23,616 nucleotides of DNA, taken from the UHGV virus genome UHGV-1378242. One strand, written 5' to 3'. The notes beneath the pieces were generated by a model that did no database searches, was not told the origin of the DNA, and saw only the letters and a list, made by a program, of their open reading frames with translations. This document shows positions 3,729 to 23,616 of this stretch, in pieces (the first letter of the stretch is position 1; the number at the start of each line of letters is the position of its first letter). The position numbers were made by a program, and so were the translations under genes. This DNA is from a virus.

Positions 3729-3744
3729 TTACCTGAAAGGTAAT
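3729..3744. promoter_or_regulatory. Operator-like inverted repeat TTACC-TGAAA-GGTAA (16-mer TTACCTGAAAGGTAAT)
   Basis: The same 16-mer recurs at 22646-22661. It sits in the 430-bp non-coding region between the tRNA and the portal operon, next to palindrome GGTTAGTAACC (3702-3712) and direct repeat GGTAATAATTT (3739-3749, 3801-3811). Confidence 0.45.
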
Positions 3745-17109: not shown

Positions 17110-19584
17110 ATGAGACAGGAATGTATACAAGCGGTCCAGCAGGCGGCGCAGCGCACGTTAACGGCGCGAGAAATACAGAACATTGAAGACCGCATTTATC
17201 GCAATATGCGCTCCATTGCTCGTGATGACCCTATGTCGTGGCGACAACTTTCCGAGTCAGAGCGGCTGTATCGTGCAGCACAATTGGCATCTGAAGAATT
17301 ACAGCGAGAAGCGGCATTAAAGAAACGTCGTGTGGCTCTTACTATAGCCGCACGTCAGAGATTGGATAAATTTATCAATAGCTATCAAGGGGCTGATGGG
17401 AAACTTGGCGCTCTTAACCGTACTATTGCTTTTAATGCAGACGGTAAATCGAATTTCCTCTCTGTTGAGTCCAGAACAAAAGCCACTCGTGATTATGCAT
17501 TGAGTCAATTGCAGGAGGCATTCGAAGCAGTTGATCCTCGCTTTTTTGGCCTGTTTGAAGATGAAGCGGGCGTGCGTGACCTGGTATATGAAATGCGAGG
17601 GCAAAATACTGGCAATGCTAAAGCAAGAAAAGGTGCTAAGGCGTGGAGAGAAGTGACAGATCTACTCCGCCGCCGGTTTAATGATGCTGGTGGGGACATT
17701 GGCTATCTCGAAAACTGGGGGATCCCTCAACATCATTCTATGGAAAAGGTTGGGGCGGTATCAAAAGATAAATGGGTTAGCGATGTTATAGGTAAGCTGG
17801 ATCGCAAATATTATACCCGAGCCGATGGACAACTGATGAACGATGCCGAGTTGTCTGCATTTCTTGGAGAGGCTTATAACACGATCGCTACTGGTGGGCT
17901 GAATAAGCTTACTGATACCGGAATGCGAATTTCCGGCGCACGTGCTAACCGTGGTAATGCATCACGACAGATACATTTCAAAGATGCAGATTCCTATCTG
18001 CAATATCAGCAACTTTATGGCGATCGCTCTCTATGGGAAATCATGGTCGGTCACCTGGAAGGTATCAGTAAAGATATTGCACTGGTGGAAACATATGGCC
18101 CAAACCCCGATCATGTTTTCCGCTCCCTTCTTGATCAGGTTAAGGCAGAAACGGCAACAGCTAACCCGAGTAAAACCGGTAAAGTCGAGCGGCTGGCGAA
18201 CAACACAGAGAATCTGTACAACTTTATTTCTGGAAAGACACAGCCTGTAGCGAATCCGCACATCGCGCGATGGTCTGACAATATCCGCAACTGGCTGGTT
18301 GCCAGCAGACTCGGATCCGCGTTGCTGTCATCGTTCTCTGATCTTGGAACCATGTATCTGTCTGCGAAGGTTACCAACCTTCCAATGAACCAGTTATTCC
18401 GCAACCAGCTTGAAGCTATGGACCCAACGAACCGTACAGAACTTGCGCGGGCGCGCCGCGCTGGTCTGGCGATGGAATCTCTACTTGGCAGCGTTAACCG
18501 CTGGGCGATGGATAATATGGGGCCGTCAGTGTCTCGTTGGGCGGCAACGGCCGTAATGCGTGCCAGTGGGCTTACAGCATGGTCAGATGCGCACAAGCGC
18601 GCCTATGGCGTAACCATGATGGGAAGCCTGGGAGAAGTAGTGTCACGGACACCAGACCTTCGTAGCCTCGATGACTCTGATTTTCGTATCCTGAAAAGCA
18701 AAGGGATTACTGACACAGACTGGAGCGTATGGAAGCTGGCGCAACAGGAGGACTGGGGGAACGGTAATAATACGATGCTGACACCGGAAAGCATTATGCG
18801 TATCCCTGATTCAGCAGTTAAACATCTTGGTGAGCCTGAACGAGTGAAATTTGAGGCAATGCGTAAACTGCTCGGTGCCGTAACTGAAGAAGTTGATATG
18901 GCTGTTATTACACCGGGAGCACGTGAGCAACTGATAACCGGTTCTGGTATTCAGCGTGGAACATGGAAAGGTGAATTAACGAGAAGTGTTTTCCTGTTTA
19001 AATCGTTCCCTATCTCGGTTGTTATGCGTCACTGGTCACGCGCTATGGGTATGCCGTCTGCTGGTGGGCGTGCGGCATATATTGCGACGTTTATTGCCAG
19101 TACGACCATTCTTGGCGCTTTGTCGCAGCAACTTAACGACCTTGCGTCTGGTCGTAATCCTCGAGAGATGACAGGAGAAGGTGCCGCAAAATTCTGGCTT
19201 GGTGCTCTACTGAAAGGTGGTGGCCTTGGCCTTTACGGTGACTTTTTATTGTCAGATCACACTAGGTACGGAAGCGGCGCGCTGGCGTCGATGCTTGGCC
19301 CGGTAGCTGGTCTGGTTGATGACGTAGTGAAGATTGCTCAGGGCATACCGTTAAATGCTGTGGAAGGGAAGAGTGAGCAGACTGGTGGTGATCTGGTGAA
19401 GCTGGGGAAAGGTTTGATGCCAGGTGCGAATCTCTGGTACTTAAAGGCGGCTCTCGATCATATGATCTTGAACCAGATGCAGGAGTATTTTTCACCAGGC
19501 TATTTGCGTAAAATGGAGCAACGTTCGAAGAAAGAGTTTAATCAGACATACTGGTGGCGACCTCAGGATGTCACTCCGCAATAA
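17110..19584 (+). CDS. Putative internal virion/ejection protein (824 aa)
   Basis: Together with the 514-aa ORF it totals roughly the length of T7 gp16 (about 1300 aa). Last large gene of the operon. Confidence 0.6.
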   Translation: MRQECIQAVQQAAQRTLTAREIQNIEDRIYRNMRSIARDDPMSWRQLSESERLYRAAQLASEELQREAALKKRRVALTIAARQRLDKFINSYQGADGKLGALNRTIAFNADGKSNFLSVESRTKATRDYALSQLQEAFEAVDPRFFGLFEDEAGVRDLVYEMRGQNTGNAKARKGAKAWREVTDLLRRRFNDAGGDIGYLENWGIPQHHSMEKVGAVSKDKWVSDVIGKLDRKYYTRADGQLMNDAELSAFLGEAYNTIATGGLNKLTDTGMRISGARANRGNASRQIHFKDADSYLQYQQLYGDRSLWEIMVGHLEGISKDIALVETYGPNPDHVFRSLLDQVKAETATANPSKTGKVERLANNTENLYNFISGKTQPVANPHIARWSDNIRNWLVASRLGSALLSSFSDLGTMYLSAKVTNLPMNQLFRNQLEAMDPTNRTELARARRAGLAMESLLGSVNRWAMDNMGPSVSRWAATAVMRASGLTAWSDAHKRAYGVTMMGSLGEVVSRTPDLRSLDDSDFRILKSKGITDTDWSVWKLAQQEDWGNGNNTMLTPESIMRIPDSAVKHLGEPERVKFEAMRKLLGAVTEEVDMAVITPGAREQLITGSGIQRGTWKGELTRSVFLFKSFPISVVMRHWSRAMGMPSAGGRAAYIATFIASTTILGALSQQLNDLASGRNPREMTGEGAAKFWLGALLKGGGLGLYGDFLLSDHTRYGSGALASMLGPVAGLVDDVVKIAQGIPLNAVEGKSEQTGGDLVKLGKGLMPGANLWYLKAALDHMILNQMQEYFSPGYLRKMEQRSKKEFNQTYWWRPQDVTPQ

Positions 19585-19593
19585 GGAAGTGTT

Positions 19594-19767
19594 GTGTTTT
19601 TAATTATTTTGAGTGTGATAATTTCTGGTGGGTTGTTATTTATTGACCGCTACAAATATTTTCTTAACCCTCAGACTCAAGCTATTTGCTGGTTCATCTT
19701 TGTTGTGCAGGGAATAGTTCTTGTTGCAAGCCTTATTGAGGGGAGGCCTCTGATTTTTACTGGGTAA
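19594..19767 (+). CDS. Small hydrophobic protein (57 aa, two predicted TM segments)
   Basis: GTG start 4 nt after AAGGAA. Absent from the ORF track, probably because it is under 60 aa. Start codon and reality uncertain. Confidence 0.35.
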   Translation: MFLIILSVIISGGLLFIDRYKYFLNPQTQAICWFIFVVQGIVLVASLIEGRPLIFTG

Positions 19768-19779
19768 ATAGGTGACTAC

Positions 19780-20076
19780 ATGCAAGCGATAGGATTCATT
19801 GTTTATATCGTCGTTGGCCTTTTTCAGTTGGCAGCAATTATGGCTGGGCTTGAATCATGGTGGGGATTGCACTGGATAATTGCAGCCCCCATTGCTTTCA
19901 TCGTGAGCTATATTCCATTTGTTGGAGCGATTGTTGGTATGGTTGGTGCTGTGGATGTATGGCGGTGGGAGTGGTGGCAGGCTGGCCTTCTCTTCTTTGG
20001 TGGGATCATCTTTGCTATTGTCTGCGGTGGAATGTCATCATTTTTCGAACGGCTATCATTCAGAAAAGGAACGTGA
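19780..20076 (+). CDS. Small integral membrane protein (98 aa, about three TM segments, charged C-terminus), holin-like topology
   Basis: ATG with AGGTGA upstream. Very hydrophobic and Trp-rich. Last gene before the operon terminator. Stop TGA lies inside palindrome copy 3. Confidence 0.55.
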   Translation: MQAIGFIVYIVVGLFQLAAIMAGLESWWGLHWIIAAPIAFIVSYIPFVGAIVGMVGAVDVWRWEWWQAGLLFFGGIIFAIVCGGMSSFFERLSFRKGT

Positions 20077-20084
20077 CATGTCAC
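20073..20084. repeat. Copy 3 of GTGACATGTCAC
   Basis: Exact 12-mer, 2 bp upstream of the late-operon terminator hairpin. Confidence 0.6.
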
Positions 20085-20085
20085 A

Positions 20086-20110
20086 GGCCGCTTTCGCGGC
20101 CTTGTTTTTA
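20086..20110 (+). terminator. Rho-independent terminator closing the late structural operon
   Basis: GGCCGC (20086-20091), loop TTTC, GCGGCC (20096-20101), then TTGTTTTTA. Confidence 0.75.
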
Positions 20111-20269
20111 ACGAATGCCACCGCCGCCCGGGCGGGAATCCGCAGAACGCCCACCGCAGCGGGAGCCGTCAGCGGCGGTATCGCTGTCGTGCTGACAACG
20201 ACCGGCAAAGGCCTGAGTTGAAGCTACCAGAGACAACAAAACGAACAGTGCAGCAAATGCTTTTTTCAT
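20108..20269 (-). CDS. Secreted micro-protein (53 aa) with a classical signal peptide and two Cys in the mature part
   Basis: MKKAFAALFVLLSLVASTQAFA then GRCQHDSDTAADGSRCGGRSADSRPGGGGIR. Charged n-region, hydrophobic core and an AxA-type cleavage site. Host-like codons (CTG, CGT, GGT). Candidate own promoter TTGACG-N16-TATAGA upstream. The track shows it only as part of the longer 77-aa ORF 20108..20341. Confidence 0.45.
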   Translation of the reverse strand: MKKAFAALFVLLSLVASTQAFAGRCQHDSDTAADGSRCGGRSADSRPGGGGIR

Positions 20270-20340
20270 TGTGACATTTCCATCTATAAGCCACCTCAAT
20301 GTGGCGTCAATGAGTGTAGCACTGACTTTTGTTTCGTCCA

Positions 20341-20362
20341 CAAAAAAGCCCGCAGCGCGGGC
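20341..20362 (-). terminator. Rho-independent terminator for the minus-strand operon
   Basis: On the minus strand: stop TAA, then GCCCGC-GCT-GCGGGC, then TTTTTTG. Confidence 0.7.
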
Positions 20363-20911
20363 TTACTTTTCTTCAGGTTTGTTGTCTTCAGATTTCTTCT
20401 TGATGCTTGGTTTTTGTCTAAGAACGAAAATACCAGCCACTGCAACAACTGTACCGATCACTGTGCCAGCTAGAACTTCATGACCTGTTAAACCTAATAA
20501 TGTTGCACAAGCTACTGTAAAAATAGTTGCACTCAGGCCAAACCACTGCCCACGTTTATCTCTATTAATAGCCCCGTCAAGTGCCTTTTCCTCCATTTTC
20601 TGGCGGTGAGCAAACTCCTTCTCCGTCAGCTGGAAGATGCGTTCGGGGGCATCAGGTAAAATATCCTGATACCCGCGAAGCAGATAGGGGGGAGGAAGCG
20701 GACCCTGAAACGCATGGTGAGCGACAACTATCTCCTGAATTTCAGGGCGATCAAGAACTCTTGTGAAGGCATCTGGGTGTTGAATGATCTCGTTACTTAG
20801 CCCTTCCTCAACTTCCTCGAACTCAGTTTCTTCGTTATCACTTGGTTGCCCAATAGATTTTTGCATATTTGTCGAAGGACATTCCTTTAGCTTCTGGTTT
20901 TCCTCTTGCAT
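20363..20911 (-). CDS. Membrane protein (182 aa): acidic soluble N-terminal domain and two C-terminal TM helices; function unknown
   Basis: TM segments WFGLSATIFTVACATLLGL and VLAGTVIGTVVAVAGIFVL, then a Lys-rich tail. Its 5' end overlaps the upstream 108-aa gene out of frame by 74 nt, or 29 nt if Met16 at 20866 is the start. Confidence 0.6.
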   Translation of the reverse strand: MQEENQKLKECPSTNMQKSIGQPSDNEETEFEEVEEGLSNEIIQHPDAFTRVLDRPEIQEIVVAHHAFQGPLPPPYLLRGYQDILPDAPERIFQLTEKEFAHRQKMEEKALDGAINRDKRGQWFGLSATIFTVACATLLGLTGHEVLAGTVIGTVVAVAGIFVLRQKPSIKKKSEDNKPEEK

Positions 20912-21164
20912 TTGAGTTTTTCCCTGTCACTATTGCCCATTTTCCGCCAGCAGGCGCTGCAATTTTTTTTCCGTTCTTTACTATATATTCAGCATAAACA
21001 CGATTTTCTGACCGTCTGAGATCGTCTCCGACCATATTCATGTCTCTTGATATAACTTTGACGACAGAGTCTCGGTTTAAAGCCTTGGCATAGTTGGAGC
21101 CAGGAACGATACCCAAAGGGGTGCCAGACTCTATAGCCAGCTCCTTGACATATCTTCTGCTCAT
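20838..21164 (-). CDS. Hypothetical soluble protein (108 aa), first gene of the minus-strand operon
   Basis: ATG at 21164; the track's TTG start at 21179 is less likely. Basic, Lys/Gly-rich C-terminal half. Operator-like TTACC-N5-GGTAA lies in its leader. Confidence 0.55.
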   Translation of the reverse strand: MSRRYVKELAIESGTPLGIVPGSNYAKALNRDSVVKVISRDMNMVGDDLRRSENRVYAEYIVKNGKKIAAPAGGKWAIVTGKNSNARGKPEAKGMSFDKYAKIYWATK

Positions 21165-21185
21165 ATGAACCTCAACCAATCGACT

Positions 21186-21200
21186 TTACCAATCGGGTAA
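21186..21200. promoter_or_regulatory. Operator-like inverted repeat TTACC-AATCG-GGTAA
   Basis: Same arms as the 16-mer at 3729 and 22646. Sits 20-35 bp upstream of the 108-aa gene start. A TATAAT-like hexamer is at 21214-21219. Confidence 0.4.
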
Positions 21201-21242
21201 TTTTAAACATGAGTATAATGCTTTTAACTGCAACGAGTGTAA

Positions 21243-21277
21243 ACAATTATTGATAATTGTAGGCACATCCATGTGCC
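21243..21277. promoter_or_regulatory. Two adjacent palindromes, ACAATTAT-TG-ATAATTGT and GGCACAT-CC-ATGTGCC
   Basis: Both are perfect inverted repeats, located between the Bro-N gene stop (21286) and the promoter region of the 108-aa operon. Candidate operator and/or weak terminator. Confidence 0.35.
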
Positions 21278-21285
21278 GCCGCTCG

Positions 21286-21996
21286 TCAGAAGAACCCTGC
21301 CTTGTCGTTGATGTACTCCGCGTGGGTCTGGATATCACGCAGGCATTTGCTCACACCGACGATGTAGCAGAACATGGTGGTCAGCTCCGCCGCCGCGCCC
21401 GATACGTCATGCCCGTCTTCCTGTAACTGGTTCAGCAAATTCATCAGCAGTGAGTTCTCCGTCAGGCCGAGAACACCCGACGGCGAGTGAATCAAACTGC
21501 GGTAGCCGGGCTTCAGCGGGGCGCTGTAGGTTTTGTTCTCTATCTTCATCGCCTGCATTACTGCTGATGCTGTGGCGTTGGCTACCTGGTCGGCAACCAT
21601 CTTTATGCGTTCTTCCTGCGGGAGCGAGTTTTTAATGTAGCTTCCGGTGCGGCGGATCTGAGGAAGAACCTCACCTGTAACCCATTTACGAAAGCGGTAG
21701 GGGATAGTGCCTGGTGTCACTGCGTCGCGGCAGCGGAGGATCAGTGTGTAGAGGCCTGACTCGGAGATAATGTTGATCTCTTTTACTCGGCTGTCAAAAA
21801 TTGCACGATGTTCATGCCCTATGTTGAACATAGACCTTTCATCATCATCCAGTTTTTCAAGTGCTTGGGTGACGTTTTGGATACGCAGCGCACTACAAAC
21901 GTCTTGGGCTACAAACCATGGTTGGCCATCGATAATGATGGAACGGATAGGGTTAACAGATTCAAATTTGAAGATGGCAGTTTGAGCATTAGCCAT
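21286..21996 (-). CDS. Bro-N family antirepressor-like protein
   Basis: N-terminal FKFESVNPIRSIIIDGQPWFVAQDVCSALRI… fits the Bro-N pattern. Start taken at ATG 21996 (GGAG 9 nt upstream) rather than GTG 22011. The C-terminal ~65 aa are homologous to the 85-aa protein at 22312..22569. Confidence 0.8.
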   Translation of the reverse strand: MANAQTAIFKFESVNPIRSIIIDGQPWFVAQDVCSALRIQNVTQALEKLDDDERSMFNIGHEHRAIFDSRVKEINIISESGLYTLILRCRDAVTPGTIPYRFRKWVTGEVLPQIRRTGSYIKNSLPQEERIKMVADQVANATASAVMQAMKIENKTYSAPLKPGYRSLIHSPSGVLGLTENSLLMNLLNQLQEDGHDVSGAAAELTTMFCYIVGVSKCLRDIQTHAEYINDKAGFF

Positions 21997-22014
21997 GGTG
22001 GTTATCTCCACTTA

Positions 22015-22028
22015 GTGATTTTAATCAC
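22015..22028. promoter_or_regulatory. Palindrome GTGATT-TT-AATCAC over the putative -10 of the Bro-N gene
   Basis: Perfect 14-bp inverted repeat 19 bp upstream of the Bro-N ATG. The minus-strand TAAAAT hexamer lies inside it. Its GTGA-N6-TCAC core loosely resembles a CRP-type site. Confidence 0.35.
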
Positions 22029-22142
22029 CACCGCAACGCCAATTACTGGTGGTGAACTGGACAAGGTTGGCGTACCGGCCTAAGTGGTACCGGCGTCCTT
22101 TCGGACCCCTGCCCAGCCCACCATAATTCGGATATAGCTGTG

Positions 22143-22164
22143 CTTAACGCATAAAAAAACCACG
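22143..22164 (-). terminator. Candidate intrinsic terminator after the 85-aa gene
   Basis: Minus strand: CCACG-CCAGA-CGTGG followed by TTTTTTT. The stem is short (5 bp). Further hairpins lie upstream at 22181-22225. Confidence 0.4.
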
Positions 22165-22263
22165 TCTGGCGTGGTATGCGCCACTTAGTAACCCGGGACG
22201 CCAATCCCGGCACTGGATTTTGCCAGTGCCCGATTACTATGGCACAAGAGGAGTGCGATGTAA

Positions 22264-22282
22264 ATTTACCGCAAAGGTAAAT
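22264..22282. promoter_or_regulatory. Inverted repeat ATTTACC-GCAAA-GGTAAAT nested in a longer hairpin
   Basis: Variant of the TTACC-N5-GGTAA motif, bracketed by the 8-bp inverted repeat AGGAGTGC…GCACTCCT (about 22244-22292). Confidence 0.4.
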
Positions 22283-22311
22283 ATAAGCACTCCTATTGGT
22301 AATTTCAAATC

Positions 22312-22569
22312 TTATCTGGTTTGTTTTCGTAATTGTTCGGCACAATAGTCGAGATGTGTTTGCAGATCCTGCATAGACATCTGTGAGCTGGTGACGTAGT
22401 TAATCAGTGCAGTCAGTTCGGCAAGTGGGCCATCGACATTAAATCCATCCTTATCGAGATCCCGGAGTAATTTCATCAAGTGCGATCCCTCCACCAGTGA
22501 CCTGACGCCTCCCGGCGTGTGAATCCTTTCGGTAAATCCGTCTTCCAGTGGATAGTGATACTGCTGCAT
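22312..22569 (-). CDS. Small LexA-controlled protein (85 aa), antirepressor-like, paralogous to the C-terminal domain of the Bro-N protein
   Basis: ATG 22569 with GGAGAA upstream; the track ORF is N-terminally over-extended. Aligns with the Bro-N C-terminus on IH-P-GV, LM-LL, AELT and QTH-Y. A LexA box lies 20-40 bp upstream. Confidence 0.6.
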   Translation of the reverse strand: MQQYHYPLEDGFTERIHTPGGVRSLVEGSHLMKLLRDLDKDGFNVDGPLAELTALINYVTSSQMSMQDLQTHLDYCAEQLRKQTR

Positions 22570-22588
22570 CTTATCTTCTCCATGCAAT

Positions 22589-22608
22589 AACTGTATATTT
22601 ATACAGTA
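22589..22608. promoter_or_regulatory. LexA (SOS) box
   Basis: AACTGTATATTTATACAGTA matches the consensus TACTGTATATATATACAGTA at 18 of 20 positions, with perfect CTGT-N8-ACAG. Positioned over the putative promoter of the minus-strand 85-aa gene, in the divergent region shared with the tailspike gene. Confidence 0.7.
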
Positions 22609-22644
22609 GCAAATAATTTGTTTGCTATCCAGCACGTTTTGCAA

Positions 22645-22661
22645 ATTACCTGAAAGGTAAT
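22645..22661. promoter_or_regulatory. Operator-like inverted repeat ATTACC-TGAAA-GGTAAT
   Basis: Contains the 16-mer TTACCTGAAAGGTAAT identical to 3729-3744. About 40 bp upstream of the LexA box. A half-site-like CAGGTAAT follows at about 22706-22713. Confidence 0.45.
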
Positions 22662-22764
22662 ATCTATTCGTATTTACAGTCTTTCTATCCATATGTGGTT
22701 TTTCAGGTAATAGAATAACCAGATATGCGGCGCAACGGGTGCTGCGACTATCTGGAGATTTAAC

Positions 22765-23616
22765 ATGACGGTCTCAACCGAAGTTGACCACAACGAATAC
22801 ACCGGTAACGGCGTTACGACATCGTTTCCGTATACTTTTCGAATTTTCAGAAAATCAGACCTGGTTGTTCAGGTGTCTGACCTGAACGGGAACGTAACAG
22901 AATTGGTTCTGGATACCGGTTATACGGTAACTGGGGCGGGCACTTATAGTGGCGGTTCTGTGGTTCTTCCGTCTCCGCTTGCTACTGGATGGCGAATTAC
23001 GATAGATCGTGTGCTTGATGTAGTGCAGGAGACAGACCTTCGCAATCAGGGAAAATTTTTCCCCGAAGTGCATGAAGATGCCTTTGACTACCTGACGATG
23101 CTGATCCAGCAATGTTTTGGGTGGTTCAGACGTGCATTGATGAAACCATCTTTGCTTGCAAAATATTACGATGCAAAGCAAAACAAAATTTCTAACCTTG
23201 CAGATCCATCATTTGAGCAGGACGCTGTAAATAATCGCTCAATGCGTAATTATGTCGATGCTGCAATCGCCGGGGTTGTTGGTGGTTTTGGTTGGTTTAT
23301 TCAGTATGGTTCTGGGGCTGTGTACCGAACGTTCCAGGATAAAATGCGTGATGCTATTAGCCCCAAAGATTTTGGAGCTGTTGGTGATGGTATAAATGAC
23401 GATTCCACTGCAATAAGCGCGTGCCTTGAAGCCTCATCTCCAGGTTATAAAATTGACGGATTAGGGCTTACTTTTAAAGTATCAACTCTTCCGGATGTCA
23501 GTCGATTTAAAAATGCTCGTTTTTTATTTGAGAGAATACCGGGCCAGCCTCTTTTTTATGCTTCTGAAGATTTTATCCAGGGAGAGTTATTTAAAATTAC
23601 AGATACACCGTGGTAC
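22765..23616 (+). CDS. Tailspike / tail fibre with predicted pectate-lyase-like beta-helix (probable polysaccharide depolymerase); 3' end outside the window
   Basis: ATG 22765 with GGAG 7 nt upstream; open to the window end, so not in the ORF track. N-terminus MTVSTEVDHNEYTGNGVTTSFPYTFRIF… looks like a podovirus particle-binding domain. KDFGAVGDGINDDSTAI is the hallmark start of a pectate-lyase-type beta-helix. Confidence 0.8.
   Translation, partial: MTVSTEVDHNEYTGNGVTTSFPYTFRIFRKSDLVVQVSDLNGNVTELVLDTGYTVTGAGTYSGGSVVLPSPLATGWRITIDRVLDVVQETDLRNQGKFFPEVHEDAFDYLTMLIQQCFGWFRRALMKPSLLAKYYDAKQNKISNLADPSFEQDAVNNRSMRNYVDAAIAGVVGGFGWFIQYGSGAVYRTFQDKMRDAISPKDFGAVGDGINDDSTAISACLEASSPGYKIDGLGLTFKVSTLPDVSRFKNARFLFERIPGQPLFYASEDFIQGELFKITDTPWY

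Follow-up and report, generated by a model that had tools for sequence, protein, structure and literature searches.

The window analyzed here is a 23,616-nucleotide (nt) stretch of the virus genome UHGV-1378242 from the late region of a temperate, epsilon15/phiV10-like podophage (Uetakevirus-type), and our subject is the accessory gene island that lies in it between the end of the late operon and the tailspike gene. All credible genes from the late-operon terminator to the tailspike ATG were on the minus strand. The island stretch (20108-22700) shared 100% identity with an E. coli SF-468 prophage that has an endosialidase-type tailspike and for which the RefSeq annotation listed the same five coding sequences (CDS) that we found in the window, while the phages ZX5, HEMP4, and EC.W1-9 were patchwise ~97-98% identical to it. 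Epsilon15-like prophages were present in 560 of 5,426 complete E. coli genomes (~10%). The five genes and the right edge of the block were as follows.

20108-20269, minus strand: pA, 53 amino acids (aa), a secreted micro-protein
20363-20911, minus strand: pB, 182 aa, a DUF2335 protein
20838-21164, minus strand: pC, 108 aa, a basic soluble protein, with a 74-nt overlap with pB
21286-21996, minus strand: pD, 236 aa, a fusion of Bro-N and Ant domains
22312-22569, minus strand: pE, encoded by ant, 85 aa, a small antirepressor of the SPC32H type
22765, plus strand: ATG start of the tailspike gene, the right edge of the minus-strand block

The island is likely a recombination-prone accessory locus composed of four separable modules: the LexA box with ant (M1), the isrK and C4 RNA genes with the Bro-N::Ant gene (M2), the pC-pB pair (M3), and pA (M4). 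This level of confidence covers the mosaic and modules M1 and M2, and not the functions of M3 and M4. About 60% of the island is known biology. Internal terminators, separate promoter-like sites, and operators split it into at least four transcription units. Terminator-like sites were enriched (14 observed vs 4.0 expected) and promoter-like sites were not (6 observed vs 5.3 expected), so the promoter calls given below depend on context.

A preliminary description of this DNA had proposed an opposite-strand, separately regulated accessory island, and this view held: the five minus-strand CDS have terminators of their own as well as a LexA box and repressor operators. Its inventory was also recovered, namely a secreted micro-protein (pA, with an N-terminal hydrophobic signal), an overlapping soluble/membrane pair (pC and the two-helix pB), a Bro-N gene (the Pfam match in pD), and an 85-aa paralogue of the Bro-N protein (pE, paralogous to pD residues 155-231) with a putative LexA box at 22589-22608 for its proposed gating. 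Antirepressor control at the locus, another of its proposals, agrees with the Ant-type nature of both pE and pD, given their PDB 5D50 matches and the behavior of ZX5 ORF4. It erred in finding no non-Bro protein recognizable, since pE has a solved structure and pB a Pfam family (DUF2335), and it did not include the Rfam-scored isrK and C4 RNA genes or the three phage repressor operators within the island. Its suggestion of possible novelty failed for the right-hand 1.4 kb, which is of well-described kinds, and stood for pC-pB and pA, the only remaining candidates.

Gene content at the locus was highly variable among related phages, in line with the cassette variability that the preliminary description had put forward as a check. 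SPC32H and epsilon15 had ant only, and Cronobacter prophages had ant and pA. Klebsiella phage BUCT711 contained ant, pC, pB, and pA with no Bro gene and no C4, and phiV10 contained ant, the RNAs, and a disrupted Bro-ant gene (its alignment was split in two) with no pC, pB, or pA. The slot taken by pC-pB in the window held a 59-aa open reading frame (ORF) and a YafO_toxin protein (gp44) in TL-2011b, other ORF pairs in HEMP4, Phi05_1387, and Klebsiella ST512phi13.3 (the last with a C-terminal hydrophobic stretch), and a DUF4760 protein in E. coli chromosomal copies; in strain PKF4, the DUF4760 gene was the single gene in the slot. One E. coli copy carried a DUF1778 gene immediately upstream of the Bro-N gene. 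EC.W1-9 had an extra YafO-like pair between Bro-ant and ant (L003 3840-4755, plus strand), the 168-aa product of which was 31% identical to the TL-2011b YafO-family toxin (E = 7e-24). The pairs in TL-2011b and EC.W1-9 show that YafO-like pairs use two different island slots in different phages. In Enterobacter, pC-pB adjoined an Abi_2 protein and a 1283-aa uncharacterized protein. Contents of this kind are usual where a hotspot collects selfish or conflict-related two-gene modules as cargo. TL-2011b also had a true P22-type immI inserted at the same locus (L001 1280-2464; 1451-1518), with an Arc-like repressor, Ant, and a sar RNA scoring 44.8 bits, which gives this phage three antirepressor genes of two control types and bears out the earlier comparison of the position with P22 sieA-immI. 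In the window itself, an E-value scan of 19400-23000 found no sar RNA, and none of the island proteins had a Pfam match to Arc or Mnt.

The rightmost module consists of ant and the site upstream of it. Along its entire length, pE shared 88% identity with SPC32H_020 ("ant: anti-repressor protein"), which has the same genomic position, and residues 2-84 of pE aligned to residues 3-85 of PDB 5D50 chain E ("Anti-repressor protein") with E = 4e-47. The candidate control site was:

22589-22608, no strand assigned: near-consensus putative LexA box TACTGTATAAATATACAGTT, 20 nt upstream of the ant ATG

The pattern CTGT-N8-ACAG occurred three times in the window vs 0.32 expected, and only the copy at 22589-22608 had an AT-rich spacer. 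In the SPC32H-type system, LexA self-cleavage leads to production of the antirepressor, which inactivates the repressor by protein-protein contact (PMC7380047), and the Ant mechanism for SPC32H, Rep binding and tetramer dissociation, is given in PMC9638917 (Kim & Ryu 2013 is cited there and in PMC7380047). We infer from the similarity of the protein that pE would act by the same Rep binding and tetramer dissociation. DNA damage would thus remove LexA and permit synthesis of Ant, which would bind the phage repressor Rep, break its DNA-binding tetramer, and induce the prophage.

The second module would supply another antirepressor under a different control. Residues 17-112 of pD matched Pfam Bro-N (PF02498) at 71.5 bits vs a threshold of 25.6, residues 155-231 matched PDB 5D50 chain E "Anti-repressor protein" (E = 1.2e-13), and the protein belonged to PHROG 130 "anti-repressor Ant". 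pD is therefore best read as Bro-N fused to an SPC32H-type Ant domain, a putative second antirepressor with a predicted Rep-binding domain paralogous to that of Ant. The C-terminal domain of ZX5 ORF4 was identical to that of pD; overexpression of ORF4 lowered lysogen counts ~1000-fold and repressor mRNA by 75%, so that ORF4 behaves as an antirepressor (PMC9782041). Two RNA genes preceded pD, with the following elements.

22153-22242, minus strand: isrK-type leader RNA (Rfam isrK model 22153-22229), carrying a1, b1, and its own terminator
22159-22175, minus strand: isrK terminator stem, from the terminator scan
22236-22264, minus strand: candidate isrK promoter TTTACA-17-CATAGT with an upstream TG, assigned by position
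22045-22128, minus strand: C4 antisense RNA gene, Rfam RF01695
22198-22204, minus strand: a1 target in isrK, exact complement of a'
22181-22188, minus strand: b1 target in isrK, exact complement of b'
22036-22042, minus strand: a2 target TTGGCGT in the pD leader, exact complement of a'
22008-22015, minus strand: b2 target CTAAGTGG in the pD leader, exact complement of b', overlapping the pD Shine-Dalgarno sequence GGAG

In the Rfam scan, isrK (RF01394, whose model includes the 3' terminator hairpin) scored 67.7 bits vs a gathering score of 50, and the c4-a1b1 family at the same place scored 44.1 bits, slightly below its threshold of 46.7. The candidate promoter predicts a transcription start at ~22229, the first base of the isrK model. 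C4 scored 66 bits vs a gathering score of 45 (E = 8e-12) over the whole model length and folded as the model predicts, with b' (CCACUUAG) in a hairpin loop and a' (ACGCCAA) single-stranded. Nine loci contained two a' alleles (ACGCCAA and AGACCAA) and three b' alleles (CCACTTAG, CCTTTTAG, and CCTTTGTAG) in five combinations. a' paired with both a1 and a2 and b' paired with b2 in 9/9 loci, and an exact b1 match was listed in 7/9, with none reported for L003 or L014. From a comparative standpoint, this matching of alleles and targets across nine loci strongly supports functional pairing, and the a'/b' variants probably define specificity classes. Every locus with the pD Ant-domain gene had isrK and C4, and loci without that gene lacked them. 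C4 from the same transcript would pair through a' and b' with a2 and b2 of the pD leader, and because b2 covers the ribosome-binding site, translation of pD would be blocked. The a1/b1 copies and terminator of isrK would tune the levels of transcript and free C4.

Several ORFs called across these RNAs were discounted. We dismissed the 100-aa (22043-22345) and 126-aa ORFs across the RNAs and the ant leader as ORF-listing artefacts. ORFs over the C4 gene, such as the "ash family protein" of ZX5 (L005 3455-3568) and the 100-aa ORF of the window, are probably translations of the RNA gene.

A third kind of control element tied the island to the rest of the phage. The palindrome TTACC-N5-GGTAA was present as five exact copies and one copy with a single mismatch, vs 0.33 expected in the window, and three of the copies were in the island. 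This motif corresponds to the "repressor / lysogeny" binding sites of the epsilon15 RefSeq record, where it flanks the repressor gene and precedes several lytic operons. The putative operators, with no strand assigned, were:

21186-21200: 22 nt upstream of the pC start, abutting or just downstream of candidate -10 hexamers
22266-22280: abutting the -35 of the isrK promoter and overlapping the -10 of a second promoter-like site at 22280-22308
22646-22660: in the intergenic region between ant and tailspike; the same site is annotated in epsilon15
573-587 and 591-605: a tandem pair just past a terminator and before the small-terminase start
3729-3743: before the gp3/portal block

The copies before terminase and gp3/portal suggest direct control of late genes by the repressor, as in the annotation of epsilon15. 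Replacement cargo had an operator upstream in TL-2011b, HEMP4, phiv142-3, Phi05_1387, and L2_E1649, and none in PKF4. On the strength of these motif placements, both the isrK-C4-ant operon and the cargo slot appear to be wired to the prophage repressor. A Rahnella lambdoid prophage had one epsilon15-type operator in ~10 kb (L007 4339-4353), located with a pC-pB-pA trio after a Q antiterminator gene. We considered the operator as an autoregulatory site of pC, which it accompanies in Rahnella and Enterobacter, and rejected this as the main interpretation because phages without pC have the same motif as their annotated epsilon15 repressor site, and the L029 copy lacks it.

The third module, pC-pB, is a translationally coupled two-gene cargo cassette. 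Its surroundings contained these elements.

20342-20364, minus strand: rho-independent terminator after pB, AAGCCCGCGCTGCGGGCTT then TTTTTT, dividing the pC-pB operon from pA
21196-21243, minus strand: candidate pC-pB promoters TTTACA-17-CATTAT and TTAAAA-16-TAAAAT (promoter-like)
21243-21260, no strand assigned: perfect 8+8 palindrome ACAATTAT-CA-ATAATTGT, overlapping the -35 of a pC promoter candidate
21262-21277, no strand assigned: hairpin GGCACAT-GG-ATGTGCC after the pD stop codon

pB matched Pfam PF10097 (DUF2335) at 57.2 bits vs a cutoff of 25 over residues 73-122 and belonged to PHROG 3996. By hydropathy, its N-terminal part is acidic and cytoplasmic and its C-terminal part forms a hairpin of two membrane helices (~123-142 and ~144-166), and its conserved core includes invariant G70-P71-L72-P73, P75, H102, and R120, with G121 and Q122 nearly so. 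The AlphaFold2 model was all-helical with a mean predicted local distance difference test score (pLDDT) of 63. A Foldseek search of this model had 0 matches in the PDB and, in BFVD, just two unnamed viral proteins, probably DUF2335 relatives, with no informative fold match. Reports of DUF2335 as a type VI secretion system "phospholipase" (10.1101/2023.07.16.549128, PMC6267618) were disregarded for pB as a probable slip for DUF2235.

pC was predicted to be soluble and basic (isoelectric point 10) and belonged to PHROG 10654, with no Pfam, NCBIfam, or PADLOC match. It is rare: a full HMMER search returned ~6 true clusters among 1.84 billion representative proteins, and a word-indexed search returned seven close relatives. 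Residues ~50-90 also gave multi-stretch phmmer matches (P0039-P0048) to long repetitive proteins (up to 3,245 aa, 17 stretches) that are probably compositional or due to a short repeat motif. pC occurred next to pB at 34-51% identity in Klebsiella phage BUCT711, Enterobacter, Salmonella, Rahnella, and metagenome loci, and the two were always adjacent and overlapping in Klebsiella, Enterobacter, Salmonella, the Rahnella lambdoid prophage, and a sipho-type prophage end. In Rahnella, the pC-pB-pA trio had the Q antiterminator gene on one side and the lysis genes on the other. The gene for pC was often unannotated (e.g., in BUCT711, Salmonella L027, and Enterobacter), and its C-terminal motif FDKYAxLYWxTK was kept within the overlap where the pB N-terminus was not, a pattern of conservation from which we take pC to be a real gene. 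pB is in the +1 frame relative to pC, and each ORF has its own start. A programmed frameshift from pC to pB was rejected on account of these separate starts and the +1 frame; a short-contig "fusion" (P0004) more probably arose from faulty assembly or gene calling.

A small upstream partner also accompanied more distant members of the family. Four DUF2335 genes with 28-36% identity to pB were overlapped or abutted by an upstream small ORF with a [MW]-x-x-[VI]-G-x-D-[LIF]-R-type motif, as in pC.

L031 4220-4402: small ORF with the shared pC-type motif at the start of a distant DUF2335 gene
L032 2-337: the same
L033 1561-1857: the same
L029 4685-5035: the same

DUF2335 thus appears to have a conserved, unannotated partner. 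The pC-pB layout combines a small upstream gene, the 74-nt overlap, and palindromes at 21186-21200 and 21243-21260, the former being the phage repressor motif. A promoter-like -10, read by eye, also abutted the operator in BUCT711, Rahnella, and Enterobacter. The palindrome at 21243-21260 was partly retained in the Enterobacter copy.

The fourth module, pA, encodes a signal peptide with the cleavage context AFA|G, followed by ~30 mature residues that include two Cys. It matched PHROG 14503 (E = 2e-40) and an NCBI family named "transmembrane anchored protein" that is spread over Enterobacterales. Across genera, the signal peptide varied and the mature motif C-x-H-D-x-D-T-A-x-D-G-S-R-C-G-G-R-S-x-D-S-R-P-G-G was invariant or nearly so, which points to a specific conserved target. 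The candidate promoter region, which contained no repressor operator, was as follows.

20283-20310, minus strand: candidate pA promoter TTGACG-16-TATAGA, read from the sequence
20290-20305, minus strand: hairpin GCCAC-N6-GTGGC inside the promoter-like site

A GCCAC...GTGG(C) hairpin was located 15-25 nt upstream of pA in four contexts (the window, L006, L007, and L015) and could be regulatory. pA occurred without pC-pB in Cronobacter, where it was directly beside ant, and in TL-2011b, HEMP4, and Klebsiella ST512. Unrelated prophages of Pectobacterium and Dickeya had it as well, right after a gene for a 2,600-2,800-aa MuF/LPD virion protein. pA had no Pfam toxin-antitoxin, PADLOC, or PDB match. 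A lipoprotein was rejected, as the sequence has no lipobox and AFA|G is a signal peptidase I-type context, and a 77-aa GTG-start version of pA was rejected as an ORF-listing artefact. pA would be an independently mobile gene with its own promoter, producing a secreted, disulfide-bonded ~30-aa peptide that acts in the periplasm. Our leading guess, held with low confidence, is that the peptide excludes incoming phage at the envelope, a guess that follows from its recurrent placement after ejection and virion-protein genes.

On the left, the island adjoins the end of the late operon. The last large virion-protein gene upstream (17110-19584) encodes 824 aa and is followed by two small plus-strand membrane-protein genes.

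19594-19767, plus strand: small membrane-protein gene, 57 aa, at the end of the late operon
19780-20076, plus strand: small membrane-protein gene, 98 aa, PHROG 3075, the last before the terminator
20085-20109, plus strand: late-operon rho-independent terminator, hairpin AGGCCGCTTTCGCGGCCT then TGTTTTT, also just beyond the pA stop codon

The 57-aa and 98-aa genes were kept in E. coli and Klebsiella relatives, and a Salmonella prophage had a Rap1a-family gene (PF18602) at the equivalent position (L027 5596-5979). On the right, the tailspike N-terminus (22765-23616, plus strand) belonged to the conserved Uetakevirus type. In RefSeq, the full tailspike is called an endosialidase beta-propeller protein, and its distal part matches the K1 phage CUS-3, so the prophage is probably directed at K1-capsulated E. 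coli.

What pC-pB and pA do can be stated only tentatively. For pC-pB, our best guess, held with low confidence, is a toxin-antitoxin-like or abortive-infection/exclusion-type device, because the slot looks like a hotspot for selfish or conflict-related two-gene modules. pB would be the membrane-anchored effector and pC its regulator or neutralizer, and the Rep operator in front of the pair suggests that it is switched on when Rep is inactivated. A broader proposition, that pC-pB is an undescribed, widely distributed membrane-directed module of the toxin-antitoxin-like, abortive-infection, or exclusion kind that fires on induction and that pA is a new class of secreted envelope-acting peptide, is doubtful.

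Nearly as likely as the toxin-antitoxin-like or abortive-infection device is a lytic-phase accessory function for pC-pB, silent in the lysogen, such as exclusion of secondary infection, membrane-based host takeover, or lysis timing. The operator abutting the candidate pC -10, in the window and by eye in the three relatives named above, would fit such timing, as would the other operator copies in front of lytic operons (terminase, gp3, and tailspike), the location of the Rahnella trio in the late-transcribed region from the Q antiterminator to the lysis genes, and a ZX5 lysogen without a host phenotype (PMC9782041). However, pC-pB resembled no holins, antiholins, or known takeover proteins in Pfam or PHROG, the pair also occurred outside recognizable phages, beside Abi_2 and beside housekeeping genes, and many close relatives lack it, so it is dispensable for phage growth.

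Lysogen-expressed superinfection exclusion, in which pB (with pC) and/or pA would block podophage DNA delivery at the envelope as SieA does, is unlikely. The genes directly follow three large ejection or internal-virion protein genes, as does P22 sieA, and pA recurs after giant virion or ejection genes in unrelated prophages; the promoter-like site of pA is free of the Rep operator, and the predicted placements of pB (anchored in the inner membrane) and pA (periplasmic) are suitable. Against this, a tblastn search of pB in 50,697 phage records found no similarity to any gene of a P22-like phage, pC-pB carries the Rep operator, and gene position by itself is weak evidence.

The preliminary description had favored a single undescribed system. 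That the whole island (pA, pB, pC, Bro-N, and pE) forms one integrated superinfection-exclusion or defense system is very improbable, even though all five genes share one strand between two structural transcription units, their position parallels P22 sieA-immI, and three of the proteins are without an assigned function. The modules occur independently of each other, with ant found by itself, together with pA, together with pC-pB-pA but lacking Bro, or together with Bro but lacking pC-pB; the terminators, promoter-like sites, and operators divide the island into separate transcription units; and pE and pD both belong to a known type of antirepressor. Least credible of all is that pA, pB, and pC are decaying or spurious functionless ORFs, as the frequent lack of a pC annotation and its poor structure model might suggest, since the three frames are intact with 34-82% identity across genera and phage types, FDKYAxLYWxTK of pC is kept in the overlap, and mature pA is nearly invariant while its signal peptide varies.

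Returning to the mosaic of two antirepressor switches and a possible conflict cassette, a number of observations count against parts of it. The Ant mechanism is drawn from GenBank and PDB names and secondary citations, and the identity of the operators comes from database annotation and enrichment. An operator centered at about -44 of the isrK promoter is in a position compatible with activation rather than repression, and the same motif is beside pC in the Rahnella lambdoid prophage and absent from the L029 copy. Between C4 and pD, there was no conserved leader ORF like icd or orf45; the only ORF within C4, read from the sequence, had 14 codons and was not conserved. C4 therefore seems to act on the antirepressor's own ribosome-binding site, and the coupling step of P1 and Gifsy-1 would be absent or different here. 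The presumed sign of regulation at pD comes solely from C4-type pairing, and the short IsrK of Gifsy-1 activates translation. For pC-pB, neither protein had a toxin-antitoxin domain in Pfam or NCBIfam or any match in PADLOC or the PDB, and the AlphaFold2 model of pC (pLDDT 51) was unreliable and too poor for a fold search. None of pA-pE had a significant match in PADLOC-DB v2 (best E = 0.039), and the alternative slot cargo likewise had none. A ZX5 lysogen, with the same pC, pB, and pA, had no growth, stress, biofilm, or virulence phenotype (PMC9782041). Finally, a repressor-controlled pC promoter argues against the expression in lysogens that a classical exclusion or defense gene needs.

The locus joins two understood lytic switches, one gated by DNA damage and one by antisense RNA, to three small, conserved, mobile cargo genes. 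Two antirepressors with the same predicted repressor-binding domain would be layered, one SOS-responsive and the other held by the C4 antisense RNA, and the matched C4 alleles, in at least five combinations, probably set which co-resident or incoming relatives cross-induce. The isrK and C4 genes are currently annotated as "ash family" proteins or hypothetical ORFs, or are left unannotated. The slot between Bro-ant and pA is a cargo site, usually with a repressor operator, that exchanges YafO-type pairs, DUF4760, DUF2335, and other small genes. The locus has yet to show a new mechanism, and its larger half is of known kinds; the points of modest interest are the dual antirepressors with allelic C4 specificities, the repressor-wired cargo slot, and the unannotated DUF2335 partner.

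Each module can be set beside a known system. M1 shares with SPC32H Ant/Rep the position between the end of the late operon and the tailspike, a LexA box before ant, and the same intergenic repressor operator, whereas ant is alone in SPC32H and epsilon15 and is joined in the window by three cargo genes and the gene for another Ant-domain protein. At the level of the locus, P22 sieA-immI (mnt-arc-ant with sar) has the same position between ejection genes and tailspike and the same association of antirepressor control with neighboring accessory genes, but the window would be controlled by LexA, Rep operators, and C4 RNA instead.

For M2, the closest parallel is immI of P1 and P7 (c4-icd-ant), an antisense immunity system in which the a' and b' segments of C4 have duplicated targets, Op51 lies at the promoter, and P1 and P7 carry allelic variants; it was reportedly described by Citron and Schuster in 1990 and in later reviews. 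The window has the same C4 RNA with a1/b1 upstream and a2/b2 downstream, b2 over the ribosome-binding site, an antirepressor gene downstream, a putative phage-repressor operator at the operon promoter (cf. Op51 in P1), and matched allelic a'/b' variants. Unlike P1/P7, it has no icd-like leader gene, encodes Bro-N::SPC32H-Ant instead of P1 Ant1/2, and belongs to a podovirus with another repressor. The isrK-orf45(STnc1160)-anrP region of Gifsy-1, where coupling to orf45 lets the short IsrK RNA activate translation and AntQ toxicity is the result (Hershko-Shalev et al. 2016, PMC4825925), is similar in having an isrK-family RNA with a terminator, a downstream stable RNA region, an antirepressor-like gene, and one promoter with terminator read-through, but the window has no conserved orf45.

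M3 and its slot recall modules in which a small soluble-protein gene is coupled to a small membrane-protein gene as mobile prophage cargo. Lambda RexA/RexB, gp30/31 of mycobacteriophage Sbash, and gp30/31 of Butters are prophage modules of a soluble and a membrane protein, and YafNO cassettes offer a further likeness, with YafO-type pairs using the same slot in relatives. pC-pB showed no similarity to any of these in sequence or fold searches, and pB combines only two helices with a conserved cytoplasmic domain.

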